Of a stretch of 64,000 bases of DNA, positions 4,991 to 62,588 are shown in pieces. The translations under genes were made by a program, and so were the position numbers. The stretch is from assembly GCA_030835025.1 (NCBI GenBank), contig JAUQWS010000023.1:150458-214457 (forward strand), written 5' to 3'. This stretch comes from Ignavibacteria bacterium (lineage in GTDB: Bacteria > Bacteroidota > Ignavibacteria > Tepidaquicellales > OLB5). The notes beneath the pieces are model-generated. The model did not search any database. It was not told the origin of the DNA and saw nothing but the letters and a program-made list of their open reading frames with translations. Position 1 is the stretch's first letter. Each line of letters opens with the position of its first letter.

Positions 4991-5485
4991 TTACCTTGAA
5001 AATCTCCTTTTCCTGGCGAAAAGCACAGGGAATACACTGAACAGTGCAGTATAAACTGTAGTTGGAACAACGTATCTCAATACCATATCACTCATTTCCA
5101 GGCTGGTTCCCTGAAAGTAAATATAATAATACAGAAAATTGTTGACCAGTGAACAGAAAGAAACAATTACAATAAAACGGTATGTATTAAGATACCGCTC
5201 CATCTTAAGCTCATTATGGAAGTACCCTGAAACAAAACCCGACACAGTTTTTGCAAGTGCCATCAGACCGATAAAAGAGAAACTGAAAATATCCAGCACA
5301 ATTCCGGAAAGAAATCCCGAAATGCCTCCGATGATCTTGCCTCTTTTGATACCAACATACACAAGCCCTATTATGACAATATCGGGTGTTATCCTGTATT
5401 CTGTCACATCAATAAAACCGATCAGCGTCTTCTGAATAATTACCAGGCCAAGCAGAATTCCCGCATATTTCAGGTAATCTATCAT
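4991..5485 (-). CDS. mreD: rod shape-determining protein MreD
   Basis: 164-aa multi-TM protein located between mreC and mrdA. The call rests mainly on synteny and size. Confidence 0.7.
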   Translation of the reverse strand: MIDYLKYAGILLGLVIIQKTLIGFIDVTEYRITPDIVIIGLVYVGIKRGKIIGGISGFLSGIVLDIFSFSFIGLMALAKTVSGFVSGYFHNELKMERYLNTYRFIVIVSFCSLVNNFLYYYIYFQGTSLEMSDMVLRYVVPTTVYTALFSVFPVLFARKRRFSR

Positions 5486-5491
5486 CGGGGA

Positions 5492-6325
5492 CTATTTAGC
5501 CTTCTCACTGAATCTCTTTTCAAGTTCTTTACGCTCTAAATCCGTTAGAAACTTAAGTACAAAGACCTCTTCGAGTGTTTCAAAATCAACAAAGCATTCT
5601 ATTTCAATATGTTTGAACAGATTATCTTTTGTACCATCCGTTGTTGCATACCCTATCGGGAGCCCCGGCGGGAAGACATTGCTGTATTCCGAAGTAATAA
5701 TGACATCTCCAACTTTGACATCGGCGCTTTTTGAAACGTTCTTCATAAGTACTTTGCCTTCACCGTCCCATGAGATTATCCCGTCTACCCTGCTGCGCTG
5801 GTCTTTAGCGCTCACTTTAAGATCCCTATTTAAGAGAATTTGGGCAATACTGTAATTCTTACTGGTGGCAACAACCTTTCCTACAAGCCCTTTATCGGTA
5901 ATTACGGGCATACCTATCTTAACTGAATCGAACTCGCCTATATCTATTGTTATATTATTCCTGGTCTGGATAAGGGTTTTGCCGATGACCTTTCCTGTTG
6001 CCACTCGGTAATTTGTCCGTTGTTTGAACTCGAGCATTCCGTTCAGTCTTAGATTCTCCAGCTTGGATTCTTTAAGTCTGCTTAGTTCACGCGAAAGTTC
6101 GAGATTTGATTCACGTAGTGACTTATTCTCTCTTTCAAGCTCAAAAATATTCGGGATGAAAGAAAATCCGCTCTGCATTACGCCTATGACATTAACAGCA
6201 ACAACTCTTAAGAATCTTATCTGTACATTATCGTTCTGGAAAATGAGTATAATGCTGATAAGGATGAGAGCAGAAAATATCAGGTATTCTTTTAGATTGC
6301 CAAGATATGAGAGAAGAGTCTTCAT
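5492..6325 (-). CDS. mreC: rod shape-determining protein MreC
   Basis: 277 aa with an N-terminal TM, a coiled-coil (LRESNLELSRELSRLKESKLENLRL) and a beta-rich C-terminal part. It is adjacent to mreB. Confidence 0.85.
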   Translation of the reverse strand: MKTLLSYLGNLKEYLIFSALILISIILIFQNDNVQIRFLRVVAVNVIGVMQSGFSFIPNIFELERENKSLRESNLELSRELSRLKESKLENLRLNGMLEFKQRTNYRVATGKVIGKTLIQTRNNITIDIGEFDSVKIGMPVITDKGLVGKVVATSKNYSIAQILLNRDLKVSAKDQRSRVDGIISWDGEGKVLMKNVSKSADVKVGDVIITSEYSNVFPPGLPIGYATTDGTKDNLFKHIEIECFVDFETLEEVFVLKFLTDLERKELEKRFSEKAK

Positions 6326-30843: not shown

Positions 30844-33800
30844 TTGATGGTAAAAAAGCATCTAACAAGCCCTGGTTCATTAGCATTGAAATTAATAGTA
30901 CTGGTTCTGGTATTTTCTGCCAGCGGAATTTTTGCTCAATTCGGGCAGAATAAGGTTCAGTACAAGGAGTTTGACTGGAAATACATCCAGTCTAAACACT
31001 TTGATATCTACTTTAGCCAGGGCGGTGAATATATTGCGAATTTTACGGCAGTTGCAGCAGAAAGTTCGCTTGTGAGCCTCGAAAATAATATCGGATACGG
31101 AATCAAGAACAGAATTCCGATACTTGTATTCAATTCACACAACGATTTTCAGCAGAACAATGCAGTTGATGAATATCTTTCGGAAGGTATAGGGGGTGTT
31201 ACAGAGCTATTTAAGAACAGGGTGATAGTTCCGTTCGAAGGCGATTATGAAAAGTTCAGGCATGTGATCCATCACGAGCTGCTTCATGCATATATGAACG
31301 ATATGTATTATGGCGGCTCGATCCAAAATATTATTTCTTCCAATATCCGCCTGCAATTCCCATTGTGGTTCACTGAAGGTATGGCAGAATACCAATCGCT
31401 GAACGGAATGGATAAAGCCAACGATATGTTCATAAGAGACGCGGTAATTTACGACTATATGCCGCCGCTTGATTACATTGGCGGATATCTTTCATACCGC
31501 GGGGGACAGAGTTTTTTTTCGTGGCTCGCAGATGAATATGGTAAAGAGAAGATCGGCGACCTTATGATCCAGATCAAAGCGCTTGGAGACGTTGATGAAG
31601 GTTTTTTGGATGTATATAATCTGAATACCGAAAAGCTGTCTGAAAAATGGCACAAATACCTGAAACAGACATATTGGCCCGATATAAATACCAGGCAGGA
31701 ATTGAATGACTTTGCTTTGAGATTGACAGATGCCCGTGAAGGTGACGGATTTTATAATACCGCTCCTGCTATCTCTCCCAAAGGTGACAAAGTAGTTTTC
31801 ATTTCCAACAGGAATGATTATTTCGACGTATTTATAGCAGATGTGAGAACAGGGAAAATATTAACTAAGTTAATAGACGGCAACCAGACCGCTGATTTTG
31901 AAGAGCTGCATTTGCTTACACCCGGATTGTGCTGGTCTCCAAACGGAAGAAAGATAGCGATATCCGTCAAGAGCGGCAATAAGGATGCAATATATATTTT
32001 CGATGTAAACTCGGGAGACGAAACTCAGCTTCCGGTAAAGTTTGACGGTATTTTTTCTATTGACTGGAATCCGGATAATTCATCTCTTGTCATGAGAGGT
32101 GATAACAACAAACAGTCTGATATTTTTGTTTTTGATCTCAAAACCAGGGAACTTACGCAAATAACAAACGACCTTTTTACAGATCTTGAACCGCGCTGGT
32201 CAAATGACGGAAAAAAGATCTATTTTTCATCGGATAGAGGTGACTATACTGATCTGAATTCAATCCCCGTAGATCTGGATATTATGGAACATGATTATAA
32301 TGATAAGGACTTGTACGTTTATGAAATGAATTCCGGCAGCCTGAAGAGGTTCACCAGTGATAAGCATTCAAATGAAGCGAGTGTTGTCAGCTCACCCGAT
32401 GGGAAGAAAGTGCTGTTCATTTCGAACAGGAACGGAATAGATAATATCTGGCTTCGAAATCTTGAAACCGGCGAAGAAAAGCCTATCACTAATTCTATTG
32501 ACCCCATCGGCCAGCTATCGCTTTCGGCAGATGGAAGAAGACTTGCTTTCACTTCACTGAACCGGGGCGGTTATGATATTTTTTATCTGGATAACCCGTT
32601 TGATATTGATATCAGTATGAAAGAGCTTCCGAACACAGTGTTTGTACAGAAGAGGATAGATGAAGAGCAAAGACTGGCAAATGAAAAGCTGAAGATGGAT
32701 TCACTGCTTGCAGCAGCTGATTCTCTTCTGGAAAATGATTCATTAGCAAATGTACTCTCATCAAAGTTTAAAGATTCTACCGGAGTCTACACTTCGGGCT
32801 CAGATTCACTCAGGGACAGTTCAATTTACGGTAATAATGTTTCGCTTGACCTGGATCCTGATAAGAAAGATACGGTTTCCCGTAAAGGCCCGAGGTTAAA
32901 ACTGAAAGAAAAGGAAAGAAGCAAGTTCCTTATTACCGATAATACCAATCCCGACGGCAGCTTTAAGGTTAACAAGTATAAGATCAAGTTTTCGCCGGAT
33001 CTCATCTATAGCAATGCAAATTACAGCAGTTTCTATGGAGTTCAGGGTATCATACAGATGGCATTCAGTGATGTAATGGGTAATCACAGGATATATGCCG
33101 CATTAAGCGCCGTGCTTGACCTGAAAAACAGTGATTACGCATTTGCATATTATTATTTGCCAAAGCGGGTTGATTTCGGAATATCAGGATACCATTCTGC
33201 GCGCTTTTTGCTTATTGGCGAAAATTATTCCACTTCACAATTATTCAGATACAGAACATACGGAGCTGATCTTTCTGTCTCGTACCCGATAAGCAAATTC
33301 AAAAGGCTGGATGGTGCAGTATCCTACAACAGACTTTCAAAAGAGAATCTGGATAACCCTGCCGAACCGACTGAATATCTCAACTTCGTGATGCCGATCG
33401 TTAGTTACGTGCATGATAATACCCTTTTTGGATATACTGCACCGATACAGGGCACGAGATATAACCTTACTCTTTTGGGAACACCCAAGATCGGAAATAA
33501 TGGTGTGAGTTTCTTCAGTGCAATCGCAGATTACAGAACTTACTTCAAGCTTGCAGAAGACTATAACTTTGTTTTGAGGCTCAATGGAGGCGCAAGTTTC
33601 GGTAAGAATCCGCAGCGCTTCTATCTTGGCGGAACAGAAAGCTGGATAAACTATGATATTCATAATGAATCCTTACCTATTGAAGAAATTCAGGATTTTG
33701 CTTTTTCAACCCCGATAATGCCGCTTAGAGGATATGACATCAATTACCGGTCAGGATCAAAATTCGCATTGATGAATGCAGAATTCCGCTTTCCCCTGTT

Positions 33801-34077
33801 AAGATATCTGGTCTTTGGCCTGCTTCCTTTCGGATTTCAGAATGTACAGGGTATTCTTTTTACAGATGTTGGCACTGTATGGAGTGATAACAAAAAACTA
33901 CAGTTATTCCATAATGTGAACGGAGGCGTTGCAACAAAGGACCTTCTGGTCAGTATGGGAATTGGAACCAGAATATTCTTCCTGTATTTCCCTCTGAAGT
34001 TTGATGTTGCATGGACTTACGATCTGCAAAATTTCTCCAAGCCTAAATATTTAATTTCCATCGGAGCAGATTTCTAA
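30844..34077 (+). CDS. large outer-membrane fusion protein: HExxH metallopeptidase-like domain, PD40/TolB-type beta-propeller repeats and an Omp85-like C-terminal barrel
   Basis: 1077 aa with a signal peptide ending SGIFAQFGQNKVQYKEFDW. It has the HExxH motif HHELLHAYM and repeated SPKGDKVVFISNRNDYFDVFI-type PD40 units. The C-terminal beta-rich region ends in ...ISIGADF. The ATG at 30847 is the probable start. Confidence 0.7.
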   Translation: MMVKKHLTSPGSLALKLIVLVLVFSASGIFAQFGQNKVQYKEFDWKYIQSKHFDIYFSQGGEYIANFTAVAAESSLVSLENNIGYGIKNRIPILVFNSHNDFQQNNAVDEYLSEGIGGVTELFKNRVIVPFEGDYEKFRHVIHHELLHAYMNDMYYGGSIQNIISSNIRLQFPLWFTEGMAEYQSLNGMDKANDMFIRDAVIYDYMPPLDYIGGYLSYRGGQSFFSWLADEYGKEKIGDLMIQIKALGDVDEGFLDVYNLNTEKLSEKWHKYLKQTYWPDINTRQELNDFALRLTDAREGDGFYNTAPAISPKGDKVVFISNRNDYFDVFIADVRTGKILTKLIDGNQTADFEELHLLTPGLCWSPNGRKIAISVKSGNKDAIYIFDVNSGDETQLPVKFDGIFSIDWNPDNSSLVMRGDNNKQSDIFVFDLKTRELTQITNDLFTDLEPRWSNDGKKIYFSSDRGDYTDLNSIPVDLDIMEHDYNDKDLYVYEMNSGSLKRFTSDKHSNEASVVSSPDGKKVLFISNRNGIDNIWLRNLETGEEKPITNSIDPIGQLSLSADGRRLAFTSLNRGGYDIFYLDNPFDIDISMKELPNTVFVQKRIDEEQRLANEKLKMDSLLAAADSLLENDSLANVLSSKFKDSTGVYTSGSDSLRDSSIYGNNVSLDLDPDKKDTVSRKGPRLKLKEKERSKFLITDNTNPDGSFKVNKYKIKFSPDLIYSNANYSSFYGVQGIIQMAFSDVMGNHRIYAALSAVLDLKNSDYAFAYYYLPKRVDFGISGYHSARFLLIGENYSTSQLFRYRTYGADLSVSYPISKFKRLDGAVSYNRLSKENLDNPAEPTEYLNFVMPIVSYVHDNTLFGYTAPIQGTRYNLTLLGTPKIGNNGVSFFSAIADYRTYFKLAEDYNFVLRLNGGASFGKNPQRFYLGGTESWINYDIHNESLPIEEIQDFAFSTPIMPLRGYDINYRSGSKFALMNAEFRFPLLRYLVFGLLPFGFQNVQGILFTDVGTVWSDNKKLQLFHNVNGGVATKDLLVSMGIGTRIFFLYFPLKFDVAWTYDLQNFSKPKYLISIGADF

Positions 34078-34108
34078 TTTAAGTCGTTTCAATCTAGTTT
34101 ATAAAAGA

Positions 34109-34132
34109 GGAGCAGATAAACTGCTCCTTTTT
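34109..34132 (+). terminator. rho-independent terminator
   Basis: GGAGCAG-ATAAA-CTGCTCC followed by TTTTT. Confidence 0.8.
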
Positions 34133-34162
34133 GTTTATGGAATACATCTAAATCCTAGATTT

Positions 34163-34179
34163 TGTGACAATTTTGACAG
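34163..34179 (+). promoter_or_regulatory. candidate enhancer (UAS) for a sigma-54 activator, site 1
   Basis: TGTGACAATTTTGACAG is centred about 69 nt upstream of the GG of the sigma-54-like promoter. It matches the site at 40849-40865 at 15 of 17 positions. Confidence 0.5.
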
Positions 34180-34238
34180 GAAAATCTAAATCAAGTTGAA
34201 GAATTCTCAATTTTCAGCTTGCTTCAAAGGCATCTATT

Positions 34239-34253
34239 TGGCACAGAAATTGT
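34239..34253 (+). promoter_or_regulatory. sigma-54-type (-24/-12) promoter upstream of the lmo0937-family gene
   Basis: TGGCACagaaaTTGT has correct GG-to-TG spacing (consensus TGGCACG-N4-TTGC). The -12 element reads GT rather than GC. It lies 48 nt upstream of the ATG at 34301. Confidence 0.55.
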
Positions 34254-34300
34254 AATTGAACTATACAAAACGTTTTGTAATTACATCAAAGGAGAGAATT

Positions 34301-34453
34301 ATGCTTTGGACAATAGCGATTATCTTAATAGTCCTATGGCTGCTTGGACTGGTGAGTTCATATACAATGGGAGGATTCATACATATACTTCTGATACTAG
34401 CAGTTATTGCAGTCCTCGTGAGACTGATACAGGGCAGAAATCCGGTTAGCTAA
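34301..34453 (+). CDS. lmo0937-family small membrane protein (50 aa)
   Basis: MLWTIAIILIVLWLLGLVSSYTMGGFIHILLILAVIAVLVRLIQGRNPVS. The ATG is preceded by AAGGAGAG. The ORF-track version (34256) carries a spurious 15-aa extension. Confidence 0.8.
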   Translation: MLWTIAIILIVLWLLGLVSSYTMGGFIHILLILAVIAVLVRLIQGRNPVS

Positions 34454-34522
34454 ACCGGGTTTCGCTTTTGCAAATAGGAGAAAGAGTTGTCTGTTTCCGG
34501 AAATCTATGCTTTTATGTTTTT

Positions 34523-35881
34523 CTAATTTATTCCGAGGCTCTTCAGTTTTCTGTAAAATGTTCTCTCATTCATATTCAGCAATTTGGCAGCTTTGGATTT
34601 ATTACCGTTAGAGTCTTCAATTGCCTTAAGTAAAACTTCTTTTTCCGCCTTCTTAGTTGCATTTTCAAAACTCATTTCCCGGGTACCGTCTTCAGTTTCA
34701 GAGGGAATTTTGTTTCTCCCAACTTCATCTGAAATGCTTATACTATCCATAATGCTTCCCCGTGTCAGCAAGACTGCTCTCCTGATCGCGTTTCTGAGTT
34801 CCCTTACGTTTCCGGGCCATTCATGGGAAACTATCTTTTTCATAACATCCTCAGAAATGCTCTCAACTGATTTGTTGAGCTCTTTATTGGCATCTTTGAG
34901 GAAATGTTCAACCAGTGCAGGGATATCGTCGCATCTGTCTCTTAGAGGCGGAAGGTCAAGGTGAAATTCATTAAGCCTGTAGTAAAGATCCGCTCTGAAC
35001 TTTCCGCTGTTAACTGCATCCGAGAGCTTTATGTTTGTCGCCGTCAGTATCCGCACATCAAGCGAAAGTGGTTTCTTGCCTCCGATTCGGGTTATTTTCC
35101 GGTCCTGAATTGCTCTTAAGAGCTTTATCTGATTTGCGTCCGAGAGGTTTGTTATTTCATCTAAGAAAATTGTTCCTCCGTTTGCCTGTTCAAACTTACC
35201 TTCTCTTTGAATTTTTGCATCAGTAAATGCACCTTTCTCGTGGCCAAAGAGTTCACTTTCAATAAGAGATTCAGGAATTGCGCCGCAATCAACAGCTATA
35301 AAAGGCTTAGCAGCTCTTTCACTGGAGCGGTGTATCATATTTGCAATTACCTCTTTTCCCGTTCCGCTTTCACCCTGTATCAATACAGTAAGGTTTGTTG
35401 GCGCAACAATTGCAACCTGTTCAAAAACTTCCTTCATTTGAGGACTTGAACCGATTATGCCAGTACCTCTATATGAATCGTCTGATCGCTTTCTGAGAAT
35501 TTCAAGCTCTTTGTTTAGATACTTTAATTCCAGCGCCTTTCGAATAGTCAGTATCATACCGTCGTTATCAAAGGGCTTGGTCAAATAATCGGTAGCACCG
35601 CTTTTCATTGCTTCTACTGCATTCTTAATATCACCAAAGGCTGTCAGGAAAATAAAAGGGATCTGGGGATCTATTCTCTTAACCTCATTCATTATCTGCA
35701 TGCCGTCCATCTTCGGAAGCTTCATATCGCAAATGACAAGATCATAAGATTTGGATCTCATTTCCTCAATTGCCTTCACTCCTTCTGCAACCGAAAAAGT
35801 TTTGTAACCTGCTTCATCAAGCACATTCTCAAGGGTGTACCTTAAGGATTCATTATCGTCTATTATTAGAATTTTTTCCAT
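34523..35881 (-). CDS. sigma-54-dependent response regulator (NtrC family: REC, AAA+ and Fis-type HTH domains)
   Basis: REC domain (ILIIDDN...VICDMKLPKMDG), Walker A GESGTGKE, sigma-54 contact motif GHEKGAFTDA, and a C-terminal HTH (KSKAAKLLNMNERTFYRKLK). I prefer the ATG at 35881 (MEKILIIDD) over 35920. Confidence 0.9.
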   Translation of the reverse strand: MEKILIIDDNESLRYTLENVLDEAGYKTFSVAEGVKAIEEMRSKSYDLVICDMKLPKMDGMQIMNEVKRIDPQIPFIFLTAFGDIKNAVEAMKSGATDYLTKPFDNDGMILTIRKALELKYLNKELEILRKRSDDSYRGTGIIGSSPQMKEVFEQVAIVAPTNLTVLIQGESGTGKEVIANMIHRSSERAAKPFIAVDCGAIPESLIESELFGHEKGAFTDAKIQREGKFEQANGGTIFLDEITNLSDANQIKLLRAIQDRKITRIGGKKPLSLDVRILTATNIKLSDAVNSGKFRADLYYRLNEFHLDLPPLRDRCDDIPALVEHFLKDANKELNKSVESISEDVMKKIVSHEWPGNVRELRNAIRRAVLLTRGSIMDSISISDEVGRNKIPSETEDGTREMSFENATKKAEKEVLLKAIEDSNGNKSKAAKLLNMNERTFYRKLKSLGIN

Positions 35882-38800
35882 TTTCGCTAATATTTCTAAC
35901 AGGCAGCTTAATTTCAACACGGGTGCCTTTTCCCGGTTCTGAATAAATATTCAGTATTCCATGATGTGACCTTATGGTCTGGTAAGCAAGCCCAAGTCCG
36001 AGACCCGTACCGGTCTCTTTAGTGGTAAAGAACGGTTCAAAGATCTTATCAAGGTTCTCTGGCGGGATACCCTGTCCGTTATCGATCACATCAATTATAA
36101 TTTCCTGGTGGACTTTGTCAAAGAATGATCTGATGCTGAGGTTTCCTCCTCCAGGCATTGCATCTATTGCATTGGATATGAAGTTCAGGAGCGCATTTTC
36201 CAGCTTTACTTTGTCTGCTCTGATCTCAGGGAGGTCCTTATTTATGTTTTTCGAAACAGCTATTTTACTCTCAACACACCTCGCCTCAACACTGTTTATC
36301 AGGCTCTCGATCATTCCCTTAATAGAAATATGGTCGTATACCATCTCTTCAGGAGAGGCAAAATTCAAAAGGTCCTTGATTATCTTGTTGGCAATATCAG
36401 TATTCACAAGGATATATTTAAGATGTTTTTTCATTTTCTCATCTTCGATCTTTGCTTTGGAAACCAGTTGCGCAAGTGCACTGATGTTGGCAAGCGGATT
36501 CCTGATCTCATGTGCAATACCTGAAGAAAACCTGCCAAGGGCAGCAAGTTTTTCATTGTGTATGAGTTCCTTTTGAGTTTCTATAAGTTTTGCATTCGTC
36601 TTGCGGAGTTCTTCTTCTACGAGTTTTATTTCCGTAATATCCTGTACGCTTCCGTACAATCTTACAGGTTTGCCATCAGAGTCGTTTTCGACCCTGATAT
36701 CAAGACTCAAGTACTTTAGCCTGCCTTTGTGTGTAATTATCCTGTAATCAAGATCTGCATTAGAGGGCATTTCCTGCATACGCTTTGTGAGCTCATCCAT
36801 GACGACCCTGTCATCCTGATGGATGAATTTCCTCATATTATCATAATCAAGTGATTCAACACCAGGTTCGATCTCATATATTCTGAAAAGCTCGTCTGAC
36901 CATGAAATAGTGCCCTGCTTAAGATCGATCTCCCAACTTCCGAGTTTTGCTATGCTTTGTGCTTCCTTAAGCTGCTTTTCGCTCTCACGTATTCTTTCTT
37001 CTGCTTCCTTAATACTTGTTACATCCATTACCGTTCCAACCATCCGCAGAATTCTTCCGCTGCCGTCTTTCTCTATCTCACCCTGTGAACTAAGTAATTT
37101 ATGCTTACCTGATGGAGTAATGAACTTTAGATAATAATTAAACGGTTTGCTATTTTTCAATGCTTCGTCAATTGCACGAGCTCTTTGTTTCTTTCCATCT
37201 TCGTCAAGAAGTGCCAGGTAGGAATCGTTTGAAATTATCGTTCCCTGCTCAACTTCAAAAATGTTATACATTTCTTCGGACCATATTACTATGTCATTAA
37301 CTGCATCCCATTCCCAGCTTCCAAGCTTTGCCATTCGCTGTGCTTCTTTAAGCTTCTTTTCGCTTTCTATGATCTTCTCTTCTGCCTGTCTCACCTGTGT
37401 CACATCAAGTCCGGTCCCCACAACTTTGAGAGTTTTTCCTTTTTCGTCTGTGATGACTTCACCCTGAGCTTTTAGAATTTTGATCTCTCCTTCCGGAAGA
37501 ATGATCCTGTGATAAAAATCAAAGTTTTCTTTTGATATGACAGCTTGACTTAATATATGCTTTACCTTTTGTGCATCCTCCGGGTGTACACAATCCATAA
37601 AACCTCTGAATGTTGGTGTAAAATCGCCTGCCTTTAGTCCATAGATGGTAAACATTTCATCTGACCAGATAACACTATCAGTAGATGGATCCCATTCCCA
37701 GCTTCCCAATTTAGCGATTTTTTGGGAATCCTCCAGCATTTTTTGTTTATCTATGAGCTCAGATTCAATTTGCTTTCTCAATGAAATATCTCTTATCATC
37801 CCTGTGAAATAGAACCTGTCGTCCATTTCCCATTTGGCAAGCGATAGTTCAAGCGGAAACTCACTTCCGTCTGATCTCCTGCCTGAAAGCTCAATTGTTC
37901 TGCCTATGATTTTTGATTCACCCGTACGAAGATTATTCCCGAATGATTCTTTATGCTTCTTCCGGTATTTTTCCGGCATTATGAATGTAAGATCCTTGCC
38001 GATAAGATCATCAGTCTTATAACCAAATATGTCTGTCACGCTGCTATTAACATAAATAATTTTCCCGTCGCTATCAGCTGTTACAATTGCATCATGAGCC
38101 GTATCGGCAATTGCCTTAAAATGTTTCTCTCTTTCAAGAATGAGCTCAAGGTAGTCATTCCGCTCGGCATAACTGCCAAGCTCAATTGAAATATTCCGAA
38201 GGCAGTCTATTATCTCCTTGTCAGGTTCTGTTTCTTTTTTGATAAAAAATTCAAGTATGCCGATAACATTGTTCATACTTATTACAGGGATCCATATACA
38301 TGCTTTCAGGGCAATTTTGTTCATAAGATCAGCCCTGTTATATGACTTCGGATCCATTTCAGAAACCTTCATCCAGCCGGGTTTACGTTCTTTCAGAGAC
38401 TCTTCGAAAATACTGTTTTTGGAATCCATTGCCAGTTCTTCAGAATACGCTTTAAAAACGTCAAATTCCGGAGCCATTTTGTCAAGCCAGATACCTGAGC
38501 TGCTTAACACGCCATCTTTATGAAAAAGGAAATGCCCGATATCCCAATGCGTATATTCGCAAATCTTGTTAATTGTTAAATGAAGGTAGTCTTTAACGCT
38601 TTCAGCCTTGTTTGAACCCATTGACACATCATTCAGCAGATTCAATAAGCTGTTCCTTTTTTCAAGCAGCGCCCTTGTATTCTTTTCCTCAGTTATATCC
38701 TGCACTATGCCTACAATTGAATCAACCCTGCCTTCTTCATCACGAATTACTGATGCAGAGAGATTTATATAGAACAAAGAGCCGTCGCTTCTGGAGTTAA

Positions 38801-40826
38801 CTAACTCTCCCTTCCATCCGGATTTGAGCGCGGCAGATATTATTTCTTTTCTCTTTTCATCTGTAATGCTGCCGGAATACAGTACCGGTATGTTCTGTCC
38901 AAGTATTTCACTTTCAAGATAGCCGTAAACAGATTCAAAGGAAGGGTTCACAAATATCGTTTTACTTTTAAGGTCAGTTATAAATACACATTCTTTGATT
39001 CCCCTTAAGGCATGTCCATACAGTTTCAGTCTGTTTTGGACTTTCTCCTTGATTGCCATTTCATCAAGAAGCCTGTTGAGAGTGTTTGCGAGCTCAACCG
39101 TCCTTTCGTTTACCCTGATTTCAAGTTCATCATAAGCCTTCTTCAGACTTTCTTCTGCTTCTTTCCTTTCCAGGAAATTTCCAACCTGTCTTCCGACTGA
39201 TTCAAGCACCTCAAGCAGATCTTCATTGGGCGAGTGGCTATCTTCATTGAAACACTCGATCACAGCAGTTACCACACCATTATCACTTATTGGAATGGCA
39301 AAAGCAGATCTTAATCCAAGATTTAGAAATTCCAGTTTCCTGGGAAAATTGTCGTCCTTTTCAATATCACTTACCCAATAAGATTTATTATCTTTCCAGA
39401 TCCTTCCCGGCAAACCCTCGCCTTTTTTGAAGCTGAAGGTTTTATCATAAACTCCGGCATAATCCCTTAAAACAGGATTCAAGTCACTCCACAGCGCTCT
39501 TTGTGCAAGCTTTTCTCCATCTGCAACCCACGCAATGCCGAATTTCCAGTTCACACCCGTGCAGATATCTTCGAGTACATTTTGAAGAGCTGACTCTGTA
39601 TTAACAGCCTCCGCAAGAGTTTTCGAGACGGAATACTGAATCTTCAGGTATCTTTCGTTGCGCTTTTTCAAATGAATATCCATACAAATACCAACAAACC
39701 CCTCAAATTCATTTGCTTTATACCTGGGTACACCCTTGTTTAGGAACCACTTATATTCACCTGCGCTTGACCTTAACCTGAATTCCACTTCAAAGCTAGT
39801 TCGGTCCTCAAAAGCAGCTGCATATACATCCAGGCAATTCTGAAGATCTTCATGGTGAACACCCTCTATCCATCCGTTTCCAAGCTCTTCATTCATGCTT
39901 CTGCCGGTGAAGTTTGTCCATCCTTTGCTGAGATAAGTGAATCCTTTATTCTTTCCCGAAGTCCAGATCAAAACCGGGGCAGAATCTGCCAATATCCTGA
40001 AACGCTCTTCACTTTCTCTGAGTGAATTTTCGATCTTAATTCTGTTCTCTATTTCTGTTTTAAAACTCTCATTGGTAAGTTTAAGCTCATTAGTGCGCTC
40101 TTCAACCCTGTCTTCAAGTTCATCATATGATTTCCTTAAGAGTGATTCTGCTTCATTCTTTTTTCTAATGAGCTTTCTGGAAATAAAGAGCGATAGTCCC
40201 AGGACAACAAATGCAAACAGACTTGTAAAAATGATGAATAACTGTGTGTCCATAAGGCTGTTTCTGGAAGCGGTTTGCCTTGCTTCAAGAAGTTTAAGCT
40301 CATCCTGTTTTATGCGCGATGTTACTTCGGCTGCTTTGTCTGTTAGATCCTGTGAGAGTATTGCAAGATTTGTCTGTTCCGGCAGAACTTTTTTCTCGGT
40401 TTCAAACAGCGAAAGTGAAGAATCGAGAAGTGATATGCATATCGAAGAAAGGGAATCCAGTTTGTTTACCTCTTGCCGGATCTCGTCTACTGCCGAACCG
40501 GATCGAAGCTTATCAAGCAATATACGAAGTGAGGTCTTCGAATTCCCGAATTCAACCAAATACCTTTTTTCGCCTTTTAATATGTACCCTCTTCTTTGAA
40601 GGTGCAGGTTGGATAAAAGAAGGTCAATTTGGTCTGCAGTTTTCAGAACTTCATTGGTATGGTCAACAGAACTAAGAGTACTTCTGTAAACTTCAATATT
40701 ATTATATGTTTTTATGCTGAGAACGACAAAACAAAGCAAAAAAATCAAAAATGCAGCCGGAATGAACTTCTCCAGCGGAAGTTTCTCAGTAAATCCTTGA
40801 GTTGACCTTTTCTTGTTTTCCTTCAA
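35853..40826 (-). CDS. giant sensor histidine kinase: CHASE3-like periplasmic domain, TM, about 6 PAS and 2 GAF domains, HisKA and HATPase_c
   Basis: 1657 aa. N-terminal TM followed by VDHTNEVL...[18 protein letters not shown] (CHASE3-like). Three tandem units of the KLGSWEWD...IWSDEMF type form PAS domains. The H-box is [15 protein letters not shown] and the G-boxes are DNGQGIP and GTGLGLGLA. The start is TTG. Confidence 0.85.
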
Positions 40827-40848
40827 TTTTTGCCTGATTTGCCTTAAT

Positions 40849-40865
40849 TGTGACAGTTTTGTCAG
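40849..40865 (+). promoter_or_regulatory. candidate enhancer (UAS) for a sigma-54 activator, site 2
   Basis: TGTGACAGTTTTGTCAG contains the perfect inverted repeat TGACA-GTTT-TGTCA. It is centred about 61 nt upstream of the GG of the promoter at 40917. Confidence 0.5.
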
Positions 40866-40916
40866 ACCTTATATGCCTAAATGACTATAATAACAACAAA
40901 AATATCAAAAAAGATT

Positions 40917-40931
40917 TGGCACGATTCTTGT
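40917..40931 (+). promoter_or_regulatory. sigma-54-type (-24/-12) promoter divergent from the kinase gene
   Basis: TGGCACGattcTTGT matches YTGGCACG-N4-TTG with correct spacing. The -12 element is GT rather than GC, as at 34239. Confidence 0.55.
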
Positions 40932-40992
40932 AACATTAAGTCAGTGAACAAAATAGTGATTTTGAAATTAACTTTAAATGAATGGAGGAAAA

Positions 40993-41163
40993 ATGCTTGA
41001 CCACAAAATCAAAAGAGAGGACATAGGTTATCTGAGGCTTCTAATCGATCTGGCACGGCTTGAATATGAAAAAGTAACTTCCAAGAAGAACGATTCTTCA
41101 GATGAACCATCATTAAGTGAAAACGTTAACAGGAGACTGGCTTTGATTAATTTTTATCTGTAA
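40993..41163 (+). CDS. hypothetical small protein (56 aa), first ORF after the sigma-54-type promoter
   Basis: MLDHKIKREDIGYLRLLIDLARLEYEK... The ATG at 40993 is preceded by GGAGGA. The ORF-track start is 40978. Confidence 0.4.
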   Translation: MLDHKIKREDIGYLRLLIDLARLEYEKVTSKKNDSSDEPSLSENVNRRLALINFYL

Positions 41164-41180
41164 GCGCCAAATAACTGAAT

Positions 41181-41603
41181 ATGCCAAATCTGAATATCCT
41201 AATATTGGTAATAGAAGATGACAAGTATATGAACGAGACACTTTGCGATGTACTGGAATCGGAAGGTTATAATGTAGAATCAGCATTAAATGCGCTGGAT
41301 GCAATTAACAAAATAAAGCACAGCGGGAACAAATATCATATCCTGGTTTTGGATTATAATCTTCAATTCCTAAGCGGAATTAACGGTCTTGATATATTTG
41401 AAATTGCCAGAAAGCAGGACCCTGAAGTAAAGGGAGTACTCATTACCGCATACGGAAGGGAAAGAGACCTGAGGGAAAAAGCATATTCAATGGGAATCAG
41501 TTCATTTATAAACAAGCCGTTTATGATTACTGACCTGGTTGAAACAATTGATGAAATAGCCAGGGACTCCGGAGTGAAACAATCCGACAAGATGAAAGTA
41601 TAA
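41181..41603 (+). CDS. single-domain response regulator (CheY-like REC)
   Basis: 140 aa. ILVIEDDKYMNE...HILVLDYNL...VLITAYG...KPF gives the canonical REC acidic pocket, the Thr and the Lys. Confidence 0.85.
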   Translation: MPNLNILILVIEDDKYMNETLCDVLESEGYNVESALNALDAINKIKHSGNKYHILVLDYNLQFLSGINGLDIFEIARKQDPEVKGVLITAYGRERDLREKAYSMGISSFINKPFMITDLVETIDEIARDSGVKQSDKMKV

Positions 41604-41660
41604 ATCAAAATTGATGATCAATTGAAAGAACCAAAAAATGAAAAGAAAGAAGGAGATAAT

Positions 41661-42287
41661 ATGAATACTCTGAAGAAATGCGTAATCTTAATGTTTTCAA
41701 CATTACTGCTGGTAACTGCGTCTTTTTCACAGCAGAATGTAAACACAAATCCGAAAAAAGAGAAAAGCGTAAAAAAGATATATCCGCACGTTTCAATTGC
41801 GCCTATAGGCGGTGCTATATTCCCTCTCACAAAATCATTGAGGGATGAATTCAAACCCGGAGGACTTGTAGGTTTGGATATAGGATACAGGCTGAACAAA
41901 GAGGTAGCTCTATATGGGAAATTCTCATATATCTTCATGTCCTCTAAAGTCACCGGCGCACCGGTTGGAAATTACCTTGAGTTCAGTGCGGGACCTAGAT
42001 ATTACTTCACACATCCAAAACTGAATTCTTCACTGTTCTTTGAAGCGGGTGTAGGTGCTTATAACTTCATGCAAAAAAGTTACGTAAATCCTGCTGATAC
42101 TACCGGCACTGTAATTCCGCAGATCAGTAATATCAAGGCAGGTATAAACGGAGGTATTGGTGTATCTCTGGCATTAAGTAATGCCGTTGATATACTAGCT
42201 AAGGCAAAATATCACAACATCTTCACTCAGAACGGAACACAGGGCTTCATGACAATTAACGGTGGCTTTGAATTCAGGTTCAGGTAA
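41661..42287 (+). CDS. small outer-membrane beta-barrel protein (OmpA-like 8-strand / OMP_b-brl type)
   Basis: The signal peptide is MNTLKKCVILMFSTLLLVTASFSQQ. Alternating beta pattern, ending in ...GGFEFRFR. The ATG at 41661 follows AAGGAGA. The ORF-track start is 41622. Confidence 0.7.
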   Translation: MNTLKKCVILMFSTLLLVTASFSQQNVNTNPKKEKSVKKIYPHVSIAPIGGAIFPLTKSLRDEFKPGGLVGLDIGYRLNKEVALYGKFSYIFMSSKVTGAPVGNYLEFSAGPRYYFTHPKLNSSLFFEAGVGAYNFMQKSYVNPADTTGTVIPQISNIKAGINGGIGVSLALSNAVDILAKAKYHNIFTQNGTQGFMTINGGFEFRFR

Positions 42288-42302
42288 ACTGATAAAGGCC
42301 AA

Positions 42303-42329
42303 TTAAGGCGGGGTAACACCCCGCCTTAA
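42303..42329 (+). terminator. GC-rich hairpin, possible terminator (no T-run)
   Basis: TTAAGGCGGGGT-AAC-ACCCCGCCTTAA is a perfect 8-12 bp stem, but the downstream sequence is AATTATAAGC. Confidence 0.4.
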
Positions 42330-42468
42330 TTATAAGCTTATATCAATGATAAGGAGAATTACAGAACAGCTTAGTGCTCAGTTTTGAAGTAGAGATCATA
42401 CGGAAGTCAACATAACAGATTCTGATCTAAATAAAGTAGACAAAGCATAACCAAACCGAATAATTAAA

Positions 42469-42840
42469 ATGGACGAAAGAACATCATCTAAAGGATTTTA
42501 TATCGGCCTGTTGGCGGGTGGAGCAATTGGAGGTTTGACAGTACTTTTGACTGCACCCAAAAGCGGCAAAGAATTAAGGAAAGATCTGAGGAAAAGAACC
42601 AGGAAAATTGCCGGGAACACAGAAGAGTACATTGATTCTACAAGAAAAAGAGCTACTGAGATAATTTCCGACGGGAAAGACAAGGCAGAAGAACTCGTAA
42701 ACGACGCTAAGAGCATGACCAGCTCAATTATTAACCGCGGCAAAGATTATTTTAGTGAAGAAGTCTCGAAAATGAAGGATGCCTTCAAAGCTGGTGCAGA
42801 TACATTCAATGAAGAAAGTAAGTCAAAGAAAACTCGGTGA
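42469..42840 (+). CDS. YtxH-domain protein (general-stress type, N-terminal Gly-rich TM)
   Basis: 123 aa. It has KGFYIGLLAGGAIGGLTVLLTAPKSGKELRKDL, the YtxH hallmark. Confidence 0.8.
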   Translation: MDERTSSKGFYIGLLAGGAIGGLTVLLTAPKSGKELRKDLRKRTRKIAGNTEEYIDSTRKRATEIISDGKDKAEELVNDAKSMTSSIINRGKDYFSEEVSKMKDAFKAGADTFNEESKSKKTR

Positions 42841-42944
42841 CCCGTTACTTACAGAATGGTCCTTGTTGAAAAAAAGTGATTGTTGGTGTCAAACTGCATA
42901 ATCAGTAAAATAAGGAATTTTCCAGCAAATTATCAGAAAAACAA

Positions 42945-43097
42945 ATGTCTAGGATAATCGATATTTCTAAACACAAAAGTGAGACTTATGAAGATGCGTC
43001 TTTTGATGAGGACATGGAATACGATGAAGAAAATGCGTATAAATTGCTCGGCATTGCAGTTTTTCTGATCTGGATGTTAACGTTTTTTTTGAATTAA
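42945..43097 (+). CDS. possible tail-anchored micro-protein (50 aa)
   Basis: My translation reads MSRIIDISKHKSETYEDASFDEDMEYDEENAYKLLGIAVFLIWMLTFFLN. It is below the ORF-track size cut-off. There is no clear RBS, so this is a weak call. Confidence 0.3.
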   Translation: MSRIIDISKHKSETYEDASFDEDMEYDEENAYKLLGIAVFLIWMLTFFLN

Positions 43098-43123
43098 TCT
43101 TAATTGTACACGGGGCACAATCA

Positions 43124-43270
43124 ATGCTTTGGACGATTTTCATCGCATTATTAATAATCTGGTTAGTTGGGATATTTACGCCGTTCAGCCAGGGGAGCTA
43201 TTTTATCATACTGTTCATTACTGCAGCAGCAATTGTGCTTGTCAGGATCATTGCAGGCAAAAATTCATAA
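43124..43270 (+). CDS. lmo0937-family small membrane protein (48 aa)
   Basis: My translation reads MLWTIFIALLIIWLVGIFTPFSQGSYFIILFITAAAIVLVRIIAGKNS. It is a paralog of 34301-34453 and is absent from the ORF track (<60 aa). Confidence 0.7.
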   Translation: MLWTIFIALLIIWLVGIFTPFSQGSYFIILFITAAAIVLVRIIAGKNS

Positions 43271-43302
43271 ATTGAATTTCTTTTAGAAGTAAGGAGTGAA
43301 TA

Positions 43303-43794
43303 ATGAATAAGGAAAGAATTTTCAAAGAAGAGGTTTACGTGCATTATGATTATTTCTTAAGAGTAGCAAAGAATATGACTCAGAATTTATTTGATGCTGA
43401 GGATCTGCTTCAGGATTCGTTTGCAAGGGCTTACAGGTTTCTGGATTCGTTCGAGCCCGGAACCAATTCAAAAGCCTGGGTGTACCGTATTATGAAGAAC
43501 CTGTTCATAAATTTCAACAGAAAGAAACAGGCTCATCCGAACTACAGCCTGGACAGCATGCAAAATGAGCCATTCATAAGGGAAGACCAAAACACATTAA
43601 GATATTTTGAAGTTATGAAACTTATCGAGAAGATAAAAGATGAATACAGGCAAGTGATCATTCTATATCATCTTGAAGAGCATTCGCTTGCTGAAATATC
43701 GAAAGCACTCAACTGGCCTTTAGGTACAGTCAAAAGCAGGCTACACAGGGCCAGAAAGGAATTCAGAAAGGTCATTTCTGAAACGAATATTTAG
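43303..43794 (+). CDS. ECF-type RNA polymerase sigma factor (sigma-70 regions 2 and 4), copy A
   Basis: 163 aa. Region 2 is DAEDLLQDSFARAYRF...KAWVYRIMKNLFIN. Region 4 is LAEISKALNWPLGTVKSRLHRARKEF. The RBS is AAGGAG. Confidence 0.85.
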   Translation: MNKERIFKEEVYVHYDYFLRVAKNMTQNLFDAEDLLQDSFARAYRFLDSFEPGTNSKAWVYRIMKNLFINFNRKKQAHPNYSLDSMQNEPFIREDQNTLRYFEVMKLIEKIKDEYRQVIILYHLEEHSLAEISKALNWPLGTVKSRLHRARKEFRKVISETNI

Positions 43795-43828
43795 AGACTT
43801 TTAATAAATAGTTGCAGAAGGAGGCGGT

Positions 43829-44149
43829 ATGTTCAACACACTGTATAACCAGCTTTTTATTGAAAGTGAAAACAACGAACTTTTCATATATATTCACCTG
43901 GATAAGCTTTGTGAAAAAAAAGCATCTCTGATACTTGACAAGTACGTTGAGAATTTCAAGAAATACGAATTTGAAAAGATAAATGTTTCATTTTGGAACG
44001 TGAACATACCGGGTGAGCATTTGAGCTCATTCAGGAAAAAGACAAATGCGGCAATCAACAGAATTCTAAAAGGTTTTAAAGTCATCAATTCATATTATGA
44101 TTTCAAGATAAACCTGAAAGTAATAGCCGAGCCGCAATTGATAAATTAA
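43829..44149 (+). CDS. hypothetical soluble protein downstream of ECF sigma A
   Basis: 106 aa with no TM and no zinc-binding anti-sigma motif. It sits where an anti-sigma gene would normally be. Confidence 0.5.
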   Translation: MFNTLYNQLFIESENNELFIYIHLDKLCEKKASLILDKYVENFKKYEFEKINVSFWNVNIPGEHLSSFRKKTNAAINRILKGFKVINSYYDFKINLKVIAEPQLIN

Positions 44150-44299
44150 ACTTACAATATCATTCCTGTTGCAGTATCAATTTGTACTAAATACGATTTG
44201 CCGGAGCTGAGATCATAAATCTGATTTTTAGCTCCGGCATTCTGAAGTGATCCCAAGTCGCGGGTTAAGTCAATAAACCCGGTTCATTTACGACCAAAC

Positions 44300-44968
44300 T
44301 TATCTGGTCGGGATGTAATAGGTAAGCTTAATTTGGGGTGAGAAAAATCCATGTGTAGTGCGATTATCAGAAGTACTTACATTTGATAGCTGGTCTTCGT
44401 GTTTAGGGAAATACACATTATAATCCAGGATCAGCCCGATAGTGAACTTCTTTGCTGCAAAATATTCGGCGCCAACCCCCACATTAAAACCAAAGGATTT
44501 TACGTCATGGTTGTTATTATTGGTTGTTATATCTGCGTTAATGAGTCCGTCTTCAAAATGTTCCCATTGATATGAACCTGCACCAATTCTTACAAATGGT
44601 GAAACAACCGGCTTGCGCAACAAATGACCGAAATTGTAAATTGCATTTATTGATGTTGATAAGTTAACCCACATAGGCTCTTTCCCGGCAGGTTTGTATT
44701 TGCTGCTGTAATGATTGTAACCGGCATAGATAGTTCCTTCAATGCCGAATCCTTTGGTAATGAAATAACTAACACCAACACCAAATTGTGAGCCGACATT
44801 TAAGAAATCAGTGGTTTTTACTGATGAAGAATAATTACCGTTAGTTGGTATATTACCGCCACCGTAAAGTGAAATGCCGATCTTCCCTCTTAAGTCAGTT
44901 TTTGACACTTGTGCATTCACAAGGTAAGGAGTTATTGTTATTATTAATGCTAAGATAAATTTAATCAT
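44300..44968 (-). CDS. small outer-membrane beta-barrel protein
   Basis: 222 aa with signal peptide MIKFILALIITITPYLVNAQ. Alternating aromatic/Gly beta strands, ending in ...KLTYYIPTR. Confidence 0.65.
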   Translation of the reverse strand: MIKFILALIITITPYLVNAQVSKTDLRGKIGISLYGGGNIPTNGNYSSSVKTTDFLNVGSQFGVGVSYFITKGFGIEGTIYAGYNHYSSKYKPAGKEPMWVNLSTSINAIYNFGHLLRKPVVSPFVRIGAGSYQWEHFEDGLINADITTNNNNHDVKSFGFNVGVGAEYFAAKKFTIGLILDYNVYFPKHEDQLSNVSTSDNRTTHGFFSPQIKLTYYIPTR

Positions 44969-45547
44969 TCTTATATCTATTAATTTTGAAATTTTGTTTA
45001 GTTTTGTGCTGCAATTTTTCAGCTTAAAGATTTTAATTCTATTGGGCTTTCTATTTAACTTTATATAGGATCCATATACTTAATCGATTTATGTTTCTGA
45101 ATGTCTTGTTTCTTTACAAATTTAGATTTTCGGCGATTGGATAAAAAATCGAAATTTTTCTAAAATTAAATTCTGAAGCCAAAACACTTTATGACCGAAA
45201 CTACAAAACTCTGCTATTTTTAAGCTTTATGTGCCTTTTTCGGAATATCTAACCGGAATAAATTAAACTGCGATGAAAATGGTCATTTTTGATTTTTAGT
45301 GCCATTTCAATCTCTGAAAATTGAAAAATGGCCTCTAATTGCGAAAATATGTAATTTTAATCATACGAACCACAATGCCCGAAAATCTGTTGTAATCTAT
45401 ATTAAAGACATTCTTGGAATTTGTCTATTATCTCATTCCGAAGGACGGATGAATCGGATCCATTTGCGATGTATTTTTGTTTCTACTATACGTATATTAC
45501 TATATCATGTTAAACTTTGATGAAGTCCAAAAACCAATAAACAAATT

Positions 45548-45853
45548 GTGACTAATATGAAGGAAAACGAGAATTCAAATACACGTGTAACTGTTGATTC
45601 AACAGGCAAAGTAGTCAATCTTACAAAACAGATGTACAAAGAGTCGTTTGCAAATAAAGAGATTATTTTTGCGTCAACGCTCACAGATGCTAGAGAAGAT
45701 TCAATCCTCAGCAGGCCTAAAACAGAAACTTATGAACTGAACGAGGGTAATAATATTGGAGTAACTCTAAGGGTCAGTAATTATACACATGCTAAAGCTG
45801 AGGAGAAAAGGGACATTGCAAACAGGAAAAATCGGGAAAAGATTACGGATTAG
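45548..45853 (+). CDS. hypothetical protein
   Basis: 101-aa ORF (GTG start; an ATG lies at 45557) inside an AT-rich, otherwise non-coding ~1.1 kb stretch. I recognise no motif. Confidence 0.35.
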   Translation: MTNMKENENSNTRVTVDSTGKVVNLTKQMYKESFANKEIIFASTLTDAREDSILSRPKTETYELNEGNNIGVTLRVSNYTHAKAEEKRDIANRKNREKITD

Positions 45854-61991: not shown

Positions 61992-62588
61992 ATGAAAAAA
62001 CCAAATCAAATGAAAAAGAAAATATATGTACCGGCATTTCTTGCAGTATTATTTGCTGCAATGGTTTTTACGGGAAGTATCGGGTTCACTGAAAAACCTG
62101 AGAGTCCCTATTTTAAATATGTAGGAATAAAAAGCTGCGCTGCAACATGTCATAAAGGTGATACAAAGGGAAACCAGCTTGAAATATGGCAGGACTCCAA
62201 ACACTCAAAGGCATTTATAACCTTGCAGACACCGGAAGCTGACAAAATTGCCAAAGATAAAGGGTTTGATACTCCGGCATCAGAGACACCACTGTGCATA
62301 AAATGCCACGTTTTGGGCAAGGATATCGATCCTGAAGAGCTTGAAGATACGTTCGATAAGACACAGGGAGTGCAGTGCGAAACTTGTCACGGCCCCGGCT
62401 CGGAATATAAAAGGATCACTATTATGAAAGATAAACAGCAGGCAATTGCAAACGGTTTGATTGTTCATGAAGATGGTGCCGTTTTCTGCAAGACCTGTCA
62501 TAACTCTGATAGCCCAACATTTAAAAGCTTTGATTATGACGAGTACTGGGCAAAGATAAAACATTCAGATCCAAGTGTTTCAAAATAG
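61992..62588 (+). CDS. tetraheme c-type cytochrome (cytochrome c554-like multiheme family)
   Basis: 198 aa with an N-terminal signal/anchor. It has four CxxCH motifs: CAATCH, CIKCH, CETCHGPGSEY and CKTCH. Confidence 0.8.
   Translation: MKKPNQMKKKIYVPAFLAVLFAAMVFTGSIGFTEKPESPYFKYVGIKSCAATCHKGDTKGNQLEIWQDSKHSKAFITLQTPEADKIAKDKGFDTPASETPLCIKCHVLGKDIDPEELEDTFDKTQGVQCETCHGPGSEYKRITIMKDKQQAIANGLIVHEDGAVFCKTCHNSDSPTFKSFDYDEYWAKIKHSDPSVSK

Follow-up and report, generated by a model that had tools for sequence, protein, structure and literature searches.

This locus raises the question of whether a two-component gene pair controls the small genes that lie on either side of it. In a 64,000-nucleotide stretch of the genome of an Ignavibacteria bacterium (GenBank assembly GCA_030835025.1, contig JAUQWS010000023.1, positions 150,458 to 214,457; hereafter the window), the minus-strand genes of a large sensor histidine kinase and of an NtrC-family response regulator are flanked by two plus-strand elements, P1 and P2, that resemble sigma-54-dependent promoters. 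We hold with good confidence, from motif content, conservation and spacing, that P1 and P2 are probably sigma-54-dependent promoters, and that the adjacent regulator probably binds helically phased sites upstream of both, activating a DUF5670 micro-protein gene (P1) and a unit composed of a 56-aa open reading frame (ORF), a receiver protein gene and a small outer-membrane protein (OMP) gene (P2). An identical sequence is present in the Logan assembly of run SRR25397372, and an independent gene caller returned the same gene models.

Putative promoter elements, upstream sites and the adjacent regulator

The initial annotation had placed -24/-12 elements with proper spacing at 34239 and 40917, and both were found there on the plus strand:

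34239..34253, plus strand: P1, sigma-54-type -24/-12 element TGGCACagaaaTTGT, by motif match; predicted start at about 34265
40917..40931, plus strand: P2, sigma-54-type -24/-12 element TGGCACgattcTTGT, by motif match and conservation; predicted start at about 40943
40896..40916, plus strand: A-rich block acaaaaatatcaaaaaagatt abutting the -24 element of P2, with A-tracts about 10 bp apart

Both elements read TGGCAC-N5-TTGT, with a spacing of exactly ten bases between the GG at -24 and the G at -13. The string TGGCAC-N5-TTG occurs three times in the window, where 0.47 occurrences are expected. The third copy, at 12218, was dismissed as a promoter as it lies within an ORF, and P1 and P2 are the sole intergenic sigma-54-like sites of the window. 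Each of them faces a gene, with predicted 5' untranslated regions of 36 nt and 50 nt, respectively, and a GGAG-type ribosome-binding site (RBS) in each. In an alignment of the intergenic region between the kinase gene and the 56-aa ORF from 12 genomes (alignment A2), TTTGGC and the TTG of the -12 element are invariant at P2, and the flanks diverge (mean column identity 53%). A chance resemblance to promoters is thus unlikely. The columns AAAAAAGATT just upstream of TGGCAC are also nearly invariant in the 12 genomes, and the conservation of the A-rich block exceeds the known needs of sigma-54 recognition; this block may be an intrinsic bend or part of an overlapping divergent kinase promoter. 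A further string, GATCTGGCACG at 41047-41057 within the 56-aa ORF, repeats GATTTGGCACG of P2, and was rejected as a promoter: a -12 element is missing, and its conservation is that of coding sequence (LIDLARLEY).

Upstream of both elements lie two similar 17-mers:

34163..34179, plus strand: activator site 1, TGTGACAATTTTGACAG, centred at about -94 from the predicted start and 67 nt from TGGCA
40849..40865, plus strand: activator site 2, TGTGACAGTTTTGTCAG, centred at about -86 from the predicted start and 59 nt from TGGCA

These 17-mers had been described as matching at 15 of 17 positions, with a perfect TGACA-N4-TGTCA dyad in the second, and every part of this description was confirmed. Site 1 is a TGACA-N4-TGACA direct repeat, one base short of a dyad. 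Their stated distance of about 60-70 nt to the promoters was roughly right: measured start-to-start to TGGCAC, it is 76 nt (P1) and 68 nt (P2), with gaps of 59 and 51 nt. When the P1 and P2 regions were aligned to each other without anchors in MAFFT, the motifs were not registered, and the comparison was then made by hand. The pattern TG(A/T)CA-N4-TG(A/T)CA occurs in the 64 kb at exactly two places, which are sites 1 and 2. For the degenerate 17-mer with two mismatches allowed, 0.07 matches are expected in the window; a third match, at 62239 on the minus strand, was dismissed, being apparently coding and having no -24/-12 element downstream. In alignment A2, the half-sites GACA and TGTCA of site 2 are invariant.

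The two sites lie beyond the ends of the gene pair:

34523..35881, minus strand: NtrC-family response regulator/enhancer-binding protein, 452 aa (Pfam, translation)
35853..40826, minus strand: sensor histidine kinase, 1657 aa (Pfam; same model from the independent gene caller)

The genes overlap by 29 nt. The kinase comprises CHASE3, GAF, multiple PAS, HisKA and HATPase_c domains (Pfam). The regulator comprises, according to Pfam, a receiver domain (REC; E-value 1e-30), an AAA+ sigma-54 interaction domain (Sigma54_activat; 7e-70), an AAA_lid and a Fis-type helix-turn-helix (HTH) domain (HTH_8; 2e-12). Its translation includes DLVICDMKLP in the region of the receiver aspartate, the Walker A motif GESGTGKE, the Walker B motif FLDEIT and the recognition helix NMNERTFYRK. 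The loop that contacts sigma-54 reads GAFTDA (residues ELFGHEKGAFTDAK) rather than GAFTGA. GAFTDA is found in all orthologs that adjoin a CHASE3 kinase, and GAFTGA in more distant relatives that share the HTH; in the Desulfovibrio vulgaris regulome, GAFTDA is listed among the loop variants expected to maintain activation (PMC4641369). With regard to NCBIfam equivalogs, the regulator scores 452 bits for AtoC (cutoff 714), 432 for NtrC (559), 412 for ZraR (760) and 383 for GlrR (763); as all these scores fall under their cutoffs, we place it in an unnamed subfamily. The closest solved structures are the Aquifex NtrC-family proteins 4l4u, which is the best match, and 1ny5.

A scan for the regulator protein, with the peptide NMNERTFY among its patterns and one genome taken per species, yielded a sample of 78 loci, about 35 of them from Ignavibacteria. 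A dyad was scored when G(A/T)CA-N4-5-TG(A/T)C occurred within 170 nt upstream of a sigma-54-like promoter. Where the regulator of the locus has the helix N(M/I)NERTFYRK, 41 of the 53 such promoters have this dyad, against 5 of 55 promoters in control loci with other regulator helices. The distances from the dyad centre to the T of TGGCA fall into the classes 56-60, 66-70, 77-80 and 87-92 nt, centred at about 58, 68, 78 and 89 nt, with none between. Site 2 of P2 (59 nt) belongs to the first of these classes and site 1 of P1 (67 nt) to the second. The Rayleigh R of the distances reaches its maximum, 0.80, at a period of 10.5 bp; the associated p-values are inflated because the loci are related and half-sites stand in tandem 10 bp apart, and the phasing pattern is nonetheless clear. 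Sites 1 and 2 therefore look like upstream activator sites of an NtrC-type enhancer-binding protein and are treated here as candidates. The geometry expected of such a protein, which the initial annotation had invoked, is supported by footprinting in the alignment, by synteny, by dyad enrichment, by helical phasing and by the co-occurrence of the dyad with one type of recognition helix.

Which protein would bind these sites is a separate matter. P1 and P2 could be real sigma-54 promoters whose dyads are bound by another enhancer-binding protein, encoded elsewhere in the genome, and this applies especially to P1. Canonical GAFTGA regulators of 58-60% identity (L020, L022-27, L049) carry the same helix and occur with the same dyads near promoters, so the pairing of helix and dyad extends beyond the GAFTDA clade. 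Relative to the regulator, the P1 cassette is also mobile; in locus L047 it is found on the other strand, at a distance of 8 kb. Nevertheless, the scan found one regulator with this helix per genome, save for L004 and L008, two syntenic copies that are 83-85% identical within one metagenome-assembled genome, and this favours the adjacent regulator as the dyad-binding protein. In addition, the divergent position of P2 beside the kinase-regulator pair is kept from 81% down to about 60% identity. We consider a regulator encoded elsewhere unlikely, and continue with the adjacent one.

Site 2 could alternatively serve mainly as an operator of the divergent kinase-regulator operon, autoregulating a housekeeping-type promoter, in which case its proximity to a -24/-12 element would be secondary. 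The TTG start of the kinase gene (40826) lies 23 bp from site 2, and the start region is conserved in alignment A2, so that the promoter or 5' untranslated region of the operon must overlap the dyad and the P2 region; the conservation of the A-rich block before TGGCAC, noted above, also speaks for this possibility. Phased dyads, however, also precede many sigma-54-like promoters beside which no gene diverges, P1 among them, and the minus strand yielded no conserved promoter of the housekeeping type. A search of that strand for a Bacteroidota-type TAnnTTTG promoter of the kinase gene gave one match in the window, which was not conserved, and no call was made; nor was a sigma-54 promoter seen for the operon itself. 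An operator role as the principal function is very unlikely. Such a role is in any case compatible with activation of P2 by the adjacent regulator and is not an alternative to it, and the overlap makes autoregulation of the kinase-regulator operon via the P2 region possible, a suggestion that is speculative. In locus L046, the intergenic region between the kinase and OMP genes (about 5400-6100) carries long tandem 8-nt arrays, (taacattt)n and (aactatta)n, which sit between the kinase start and the dyad with its promoter.

Points against the assignment and the base at -12

Several observations weigh against activation of P1 and P2 by sigma-54 and the adjacent regulator. The canonical C at -12 is absent from both elements, each of which has T at this position, and the -12 base is important for tight closed-complex behaviour in E. 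coli. The site upstream of P1 is a direct repeat rather than a dyad, and the P1 cassette was found at the same position in none of the relatives. Some of the sigma-54-like promoters that immediately follow the regulator gene in relatives lack a dyad within 170 nt. The orthologous loci are mutually related, so that the counts and p-values given above overstate their independence. Finally, no rpoN was found among the large ORFs of the 64-kb window, and within the compared loci an RpoN box was found in an Omnitrophota locus only and in none of those from Ignavibacteria.

With regard to rpoN, genes encoding RpoN with all three domains are listed for two cultured members of the class, Ignavibacterium album (IALB_2998) and Melioribacter roseus (MROS_1125), in the supplement of PMC12316311; beyond this table, literature searches on Ignavibacteria with sigma-54 or rpoN yielded no report of rpoN in the class. 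We infer that rpoN is present in the source genome.

The GT in place of GC at -12 had been described as unusual in the initial annotation. To place it in context, sites were chosen on TGGCAY alone, in non-coding DNA with an RBS downstream, from the Ignavibacteria loci L001-L030, L046, L047, L049 and L071 and from the window. Among the 68 sites obtained, G is present at -13 in 62, and the base at -12 is T in 35, A in 21, C in 10 and G in 2. Among 31 sites obtained in the same way from other phyla, 22 have C at -12. None of the eight downstream protein families with several members has C as its majority -12 base. The GT is thus present as described, but it is not unusual: with T or A in 56 of the 68 sites, it follows the lineage norm and does not point to weakness of P1 or P2. 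On this evidence, T or A at -12 appears to be a lineage variant of the sigma-54 consensus and not a defect. A coupling between the GAFTDA loop and the T at -12 was considered and rejected: GAFTGA relatives (L020, L025-27) also adjoin TTGT or TTGA promoters, and the loop variant therefore does not follow the -12 base. Because the C at -12 is usually replaced by T or A in Ignavibacteria, searches with canonical position weight matrices would under-call the sigma-54 promoters of this class, which matters for genome-wide regulon prediction.

The same data bear on the possibility that P1 and P2 are chance resemblances in AT-rich intergenic DNA, with a GT at -12 that is non-functional for sigma-54. 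The missing C would agree with this, as would the composition of the window (about 40% G+C), since TTG and TGACA-like words are common in such DNA. The observed counts are, however, far above expectation, and the elements are invariant in 12 genomes while their neighbours vary. Moreover, the lineage normally has T or A at -12, G at -13 is retained and the dyads are helically phased. The conservation data already contradict a chance origin, which we regard as scarcely credible.

Genes predicted to be served by P1 and P2

The initial annotation had predicted that P1 serves the gene of an lmo0937 micro-protein. Three features delimit the corresponding cassette:

34104..34132, plus strand: terminator-like hairpin ending an upstream gene for a 1077-aa peptidase-MA/Omp85-like protein (-17.9 kcal/mol, z -4.85)
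34301..34453, plus strand: DUF5670/lmo0937-family gene for a 50-aa membrane micro-protein (Pfam PF18919, E 2e-16)
34437..34463, no strand assigned: hairpin between the convergent DUF5670 and regulator genes (inverted repeat, -19.3 kcal/mol, z -3.9)

The DUF5670 gene scores 66 bits with NCBIfam lmo0937_fam_TM (cutoff 30), was also found by the independent gene caller and is preceded by the RBS aaaggagag at 34289-34297. The first hairpin consists of an inverted repeat followed by a T run and is predicted to insulate the P1 cassette, and the second is likely a bidirectional terminator. No Rfam family was matched in a scan of 33000-45000. The cassette is self-contained, comprising terminator hairpin, activator site, promoter, RBS, ORF and closing hairpin. 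As it is absent from the equivalent position in relatives, its link to the adjacent regulator rests on motif similarity. The same design stands before stand-alone DUF5670 genes elsewhere, which supports the predicted target. In L047, the DUF5670 gene is 86% identical and has the same core, TGGCACAGAAATTGT, with TGTCA/TGACA sites upstream. Stand-alone DUF5670 genes are preceded by TGACA-N4-TGTCA and TGGCATATCGTTTGA in L025-27, and by TGTCA repeats and TGGTATAATTTATGA in L023.

Three further DUF5670/lmo0937 genes are encoded in the window, at 43124-43270 (plus strand), 56726-56580 (minus strand) and 56536-56390 (minus strand). The copy at 43124 was missed by the independent caller and lies between a 50-aa membrane ORF and a gene for an extracytoplasmic function (ECF) sigma factor, as it does in orthologs.

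P2 was predicted to serve a unit of three genes, which is laid out as follows:

40993..41163, plus strand: 56-aa ORF (MLDHKIKREDIGYLRLLIDL...), first gene of the unit, also returned by the independent gene caller
41181..41603, plus strand: single-domain receiver (CheY-like) protein, second gene (Pfam Response_reg, E 2.4e-18)
41622..42287, plus strand: small outer-membrane beta-barrel protein, last gene (Pfam OMP_b-brl)
42301..42331, plus strand: GC-rich hairpin ttaaGGCGGGGtaacaCCCCGCCttaa, likely terminator of the unit (fold -28.7 kcal/mol, z -6.6)
43303..43794: ECF-type sigma factor gene downstream of the unit (Pfam, NCBIfam)

The N-terminus of the 56-aa ORF is conserved in at least 9 genomes; the ORF has no Pfam match and belongs to no known family. 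The receiver gene is syntenic in close orthologs, at 64-75% identity. The OMP gene, for which the independent gene model starts at 41661 and encodes 208 aa, is likewise syntenic; distant orthologs have it as the first gene after the equivalent promoter. Close orthologous loci (77-81% identity) are all syntenic for the 56-aa ORF and the REC, OMP, YtxH, small membrane ORF, DUF5670, ECF sigma and 106-aa ORF genes. Orthologs of 60-64% identity lack the 56-aa ORF and REC genes and keep the GACAnTAAtTGTCAAtcnTGTCA site and a TGGCACC-N4-ATGA promoter, with OMP-YtxH-DUF5670 directly behind dyad and promoter. In more than 10 orthologous Ignavibacteria loci, the P2 promoter, its dyad and the unit of 56-aa ORF, REC and OMP genes are conserved together, which supports this unit as the predicted target of P2.

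It had also been suggested that transcription from P2 might read on into YtxH and a sigma A gene. A hairpin of differing sequence occupies the same place after the OMP gene in eight orthologous loci, and this positional conservation, together with the stability of the hairpin in the window, makes read-through unlikely. The supposed sigma A is an ECF-type sigma factor. A second, paralogous cluster of YtxH, ECF sigma and two DUF5670 genes lies at 57949-56390 on the minus strand, with an ECF protein 50% identical to the first and no sigma-54-like motif upstream; the YtxH-ECF-DUF5670 module, which occurs twice in the window, therefore looks autonomous. In L001-L010 and L047, an extra lipoprotein gene of about 210 codons stands between the OMP hairpin and YtxH. 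In the window only 181 bp remain there (42288-42468), and the lipoprotein gene has apparently been deleted. T9SS sorting domains are encoded elsewhere in the 64 kb and, along with the loci that match best, assign the organism to the Ignavibacteria.

In relatives, promoters of the same design near this regulator, with dyad and sigma-54 element, precede genes for very hydrophilic proteins of 190-226 aa and several small acidic proteins, as well as those for small OMPs and DUF5670 micro-proteins. The hydrophilic-protein gene is closely followed by DUF892 (YciF-like) genes, and a DUF3347 lipoprotein gene has a sigma-54-like promoter without a dyad within 170 nt. By its content, the regulon looks like one for general or envelope stress. 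In Flavobacterium psychrophilum, mapping has already placed envelope stress and protein quality control under sigma-54 (PMC9723704), and a stress theme is thus not new for the wider group. In eight loci (L002, L003, L005, L006, L009, L010, L024 and L047), a TGGCAT-N5-TTTGT promoter about 30-90 nt after the regulator stop codon leads into the DUF3347 lipoprotein gene, and a second promoter then precedes the genes for the hydrophilic 190-226 aa protein and the DUF892 protein. The window lacks this arrangement after the regulator gene and has the convergent DUF5670 cassette there instead. It does encode a 98-aa ORF (45558-45853, plus strand) that matches the C-terminal part of the hydrophilic family (54% identity across 52 aa). 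Upstream of this ORF, the only candidate was a wrongly spaced TGGCCT-N4-TTGC near 45330, and a canonical -24/-12 element was not found.

Under the mechanism that we propose, sigma-54 RNA polymerase would bind TGGCAC-N5-TTGT as a closed complex. The CHASE3/GAF/multi-PAS kinase would sense a signal and phosphorylate the neighbouring NtrC-family regulator, whose Fis-type HTH (NMNERTFYRK) would bind the TGACA-N4-TGTCA-type site about 86 nt (P2) or 94 nt (P1) upstream of the start. Bound on one face of the helix, the regulator could reach the sigma-54 closed complex across a short DNA loop, which the A-tracts upstream of P2 may help to bend. ATP hydrolysis and the GAFTDA loop would then open the promoter complex. 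P1 would yield the DUF5670/lmo0937 micro-protein, and P2 the 56-aa ORF, the receiver and the OMP, with transcription ending at the positionally conserved hairpin. The receiver-only protein made from P2 could compete for the phosphate of the kinase and so provide feedback.

A broader proposal is more tentative, and we regard it as possible rather than probable. Ignavibacteria, and perhaps Bacteroidota more widely, might use a shifted promoter grammar, TGGCAY-N5-TTG(T/A), together with GAFTDA activators and close, helix-phased TGACA-N4-TGTCA enhancers, as a general or envelope stress response. If so, its stress targets would include lmo0937/DUF5670, hydrophilin-like proteins and small OMPs, with YtxH and DUF892 in the same clusters, and this response, controlled by CHASE3/GAF/multi-PAS kinases, would be functionally analogous to the SigB or RpoS regulons. 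The locus itself provides a concrete regulon prediction for an uncultured lineage, consisting of a sensor kinase, an activator, a DNA site and target genes. It also gives a regulatory context to families of unknown function, namely DUF5670/lmo0937, the 56-aa ORF and the hydrophilic proteins.

Comparison with known sigma-54 systems

ZraS/ZraR with zraP is a sigma-54-dependent envelope stress system of E. coli, in which a kinase and an NtrC-family regulator are encoded divergently from the gene of a small stress protein, and the intergenic region that they share contains inverted-repeat sites for the regulator, placed upstream of a -24/-12 promoter. The locus described here has a similar layout, and ZraR is among the best NCBIfam and PDB matches of the regulator. 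The regulator is not an ortholog of ZraR, however, as its NCBIfam score lies far below the ZraR cutoff (412 against 760 bits). Where ZraS has its periplasmic domain, the kinase carries CHASE3, GAF and many PAS domains, and the targets are a 56-aa ORF, REC, OMP and DUF5670 instead of those of the Zra system. Moreover, no sigma-54 promoter was seen here for the kinase-regulator operon.

NtrB/NtrC at glnAp2 and the Aquifex proteins NtrC1 and NtrC4 are prototypes of REC-AAA+-HTH enhancer-binding proteins. The regulator shares their domain order and the Fis-type HTH, and it is likewise paired with a dyad upstream site at about -85 to -115; a dependence on the face of the helix is expected when a site is close. 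It differs from NtrC in its GAFTDA loop in place of GAFTGA, in its TGACA half-site, in its score (432 against the cutoff of 559 bits) and in its targets, which are unrelated to nitrogen assimilation.

The sigma-54 regulon of F. psychrophilum, which belongs to the related Bacteroidota, is alike in that its mapped -24/-12 promoters drive genes for protein quality control and envelope stress and for exported proteins without a known function, and high osmotic pressure brought some induction (PMC9723704). In contrast to the present locus, it concerns a different class and other targets, and that study describes neither an activator site nor a link between kinase, regulator and target. In D. vulgaris, natural regulators with GAFTDA, GAYTDA and GAFSGA loops have been assigned to sigma-54 promoters, and one of them is annotated as acting in the general stress response (PMC4641369). 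The phylum and the binding motifs are unrelated to those described here, and the promoter consensus there is canonical.

Taken together with these systems, the mechanism predicted from the sequence is the standard design of enhancer-binding proteins, ordinary but well supported. What goes beyond this design, and is modestly interesting, is the T or A found at -12 across the lineage and the strictness with which the activator sites are helically phased.

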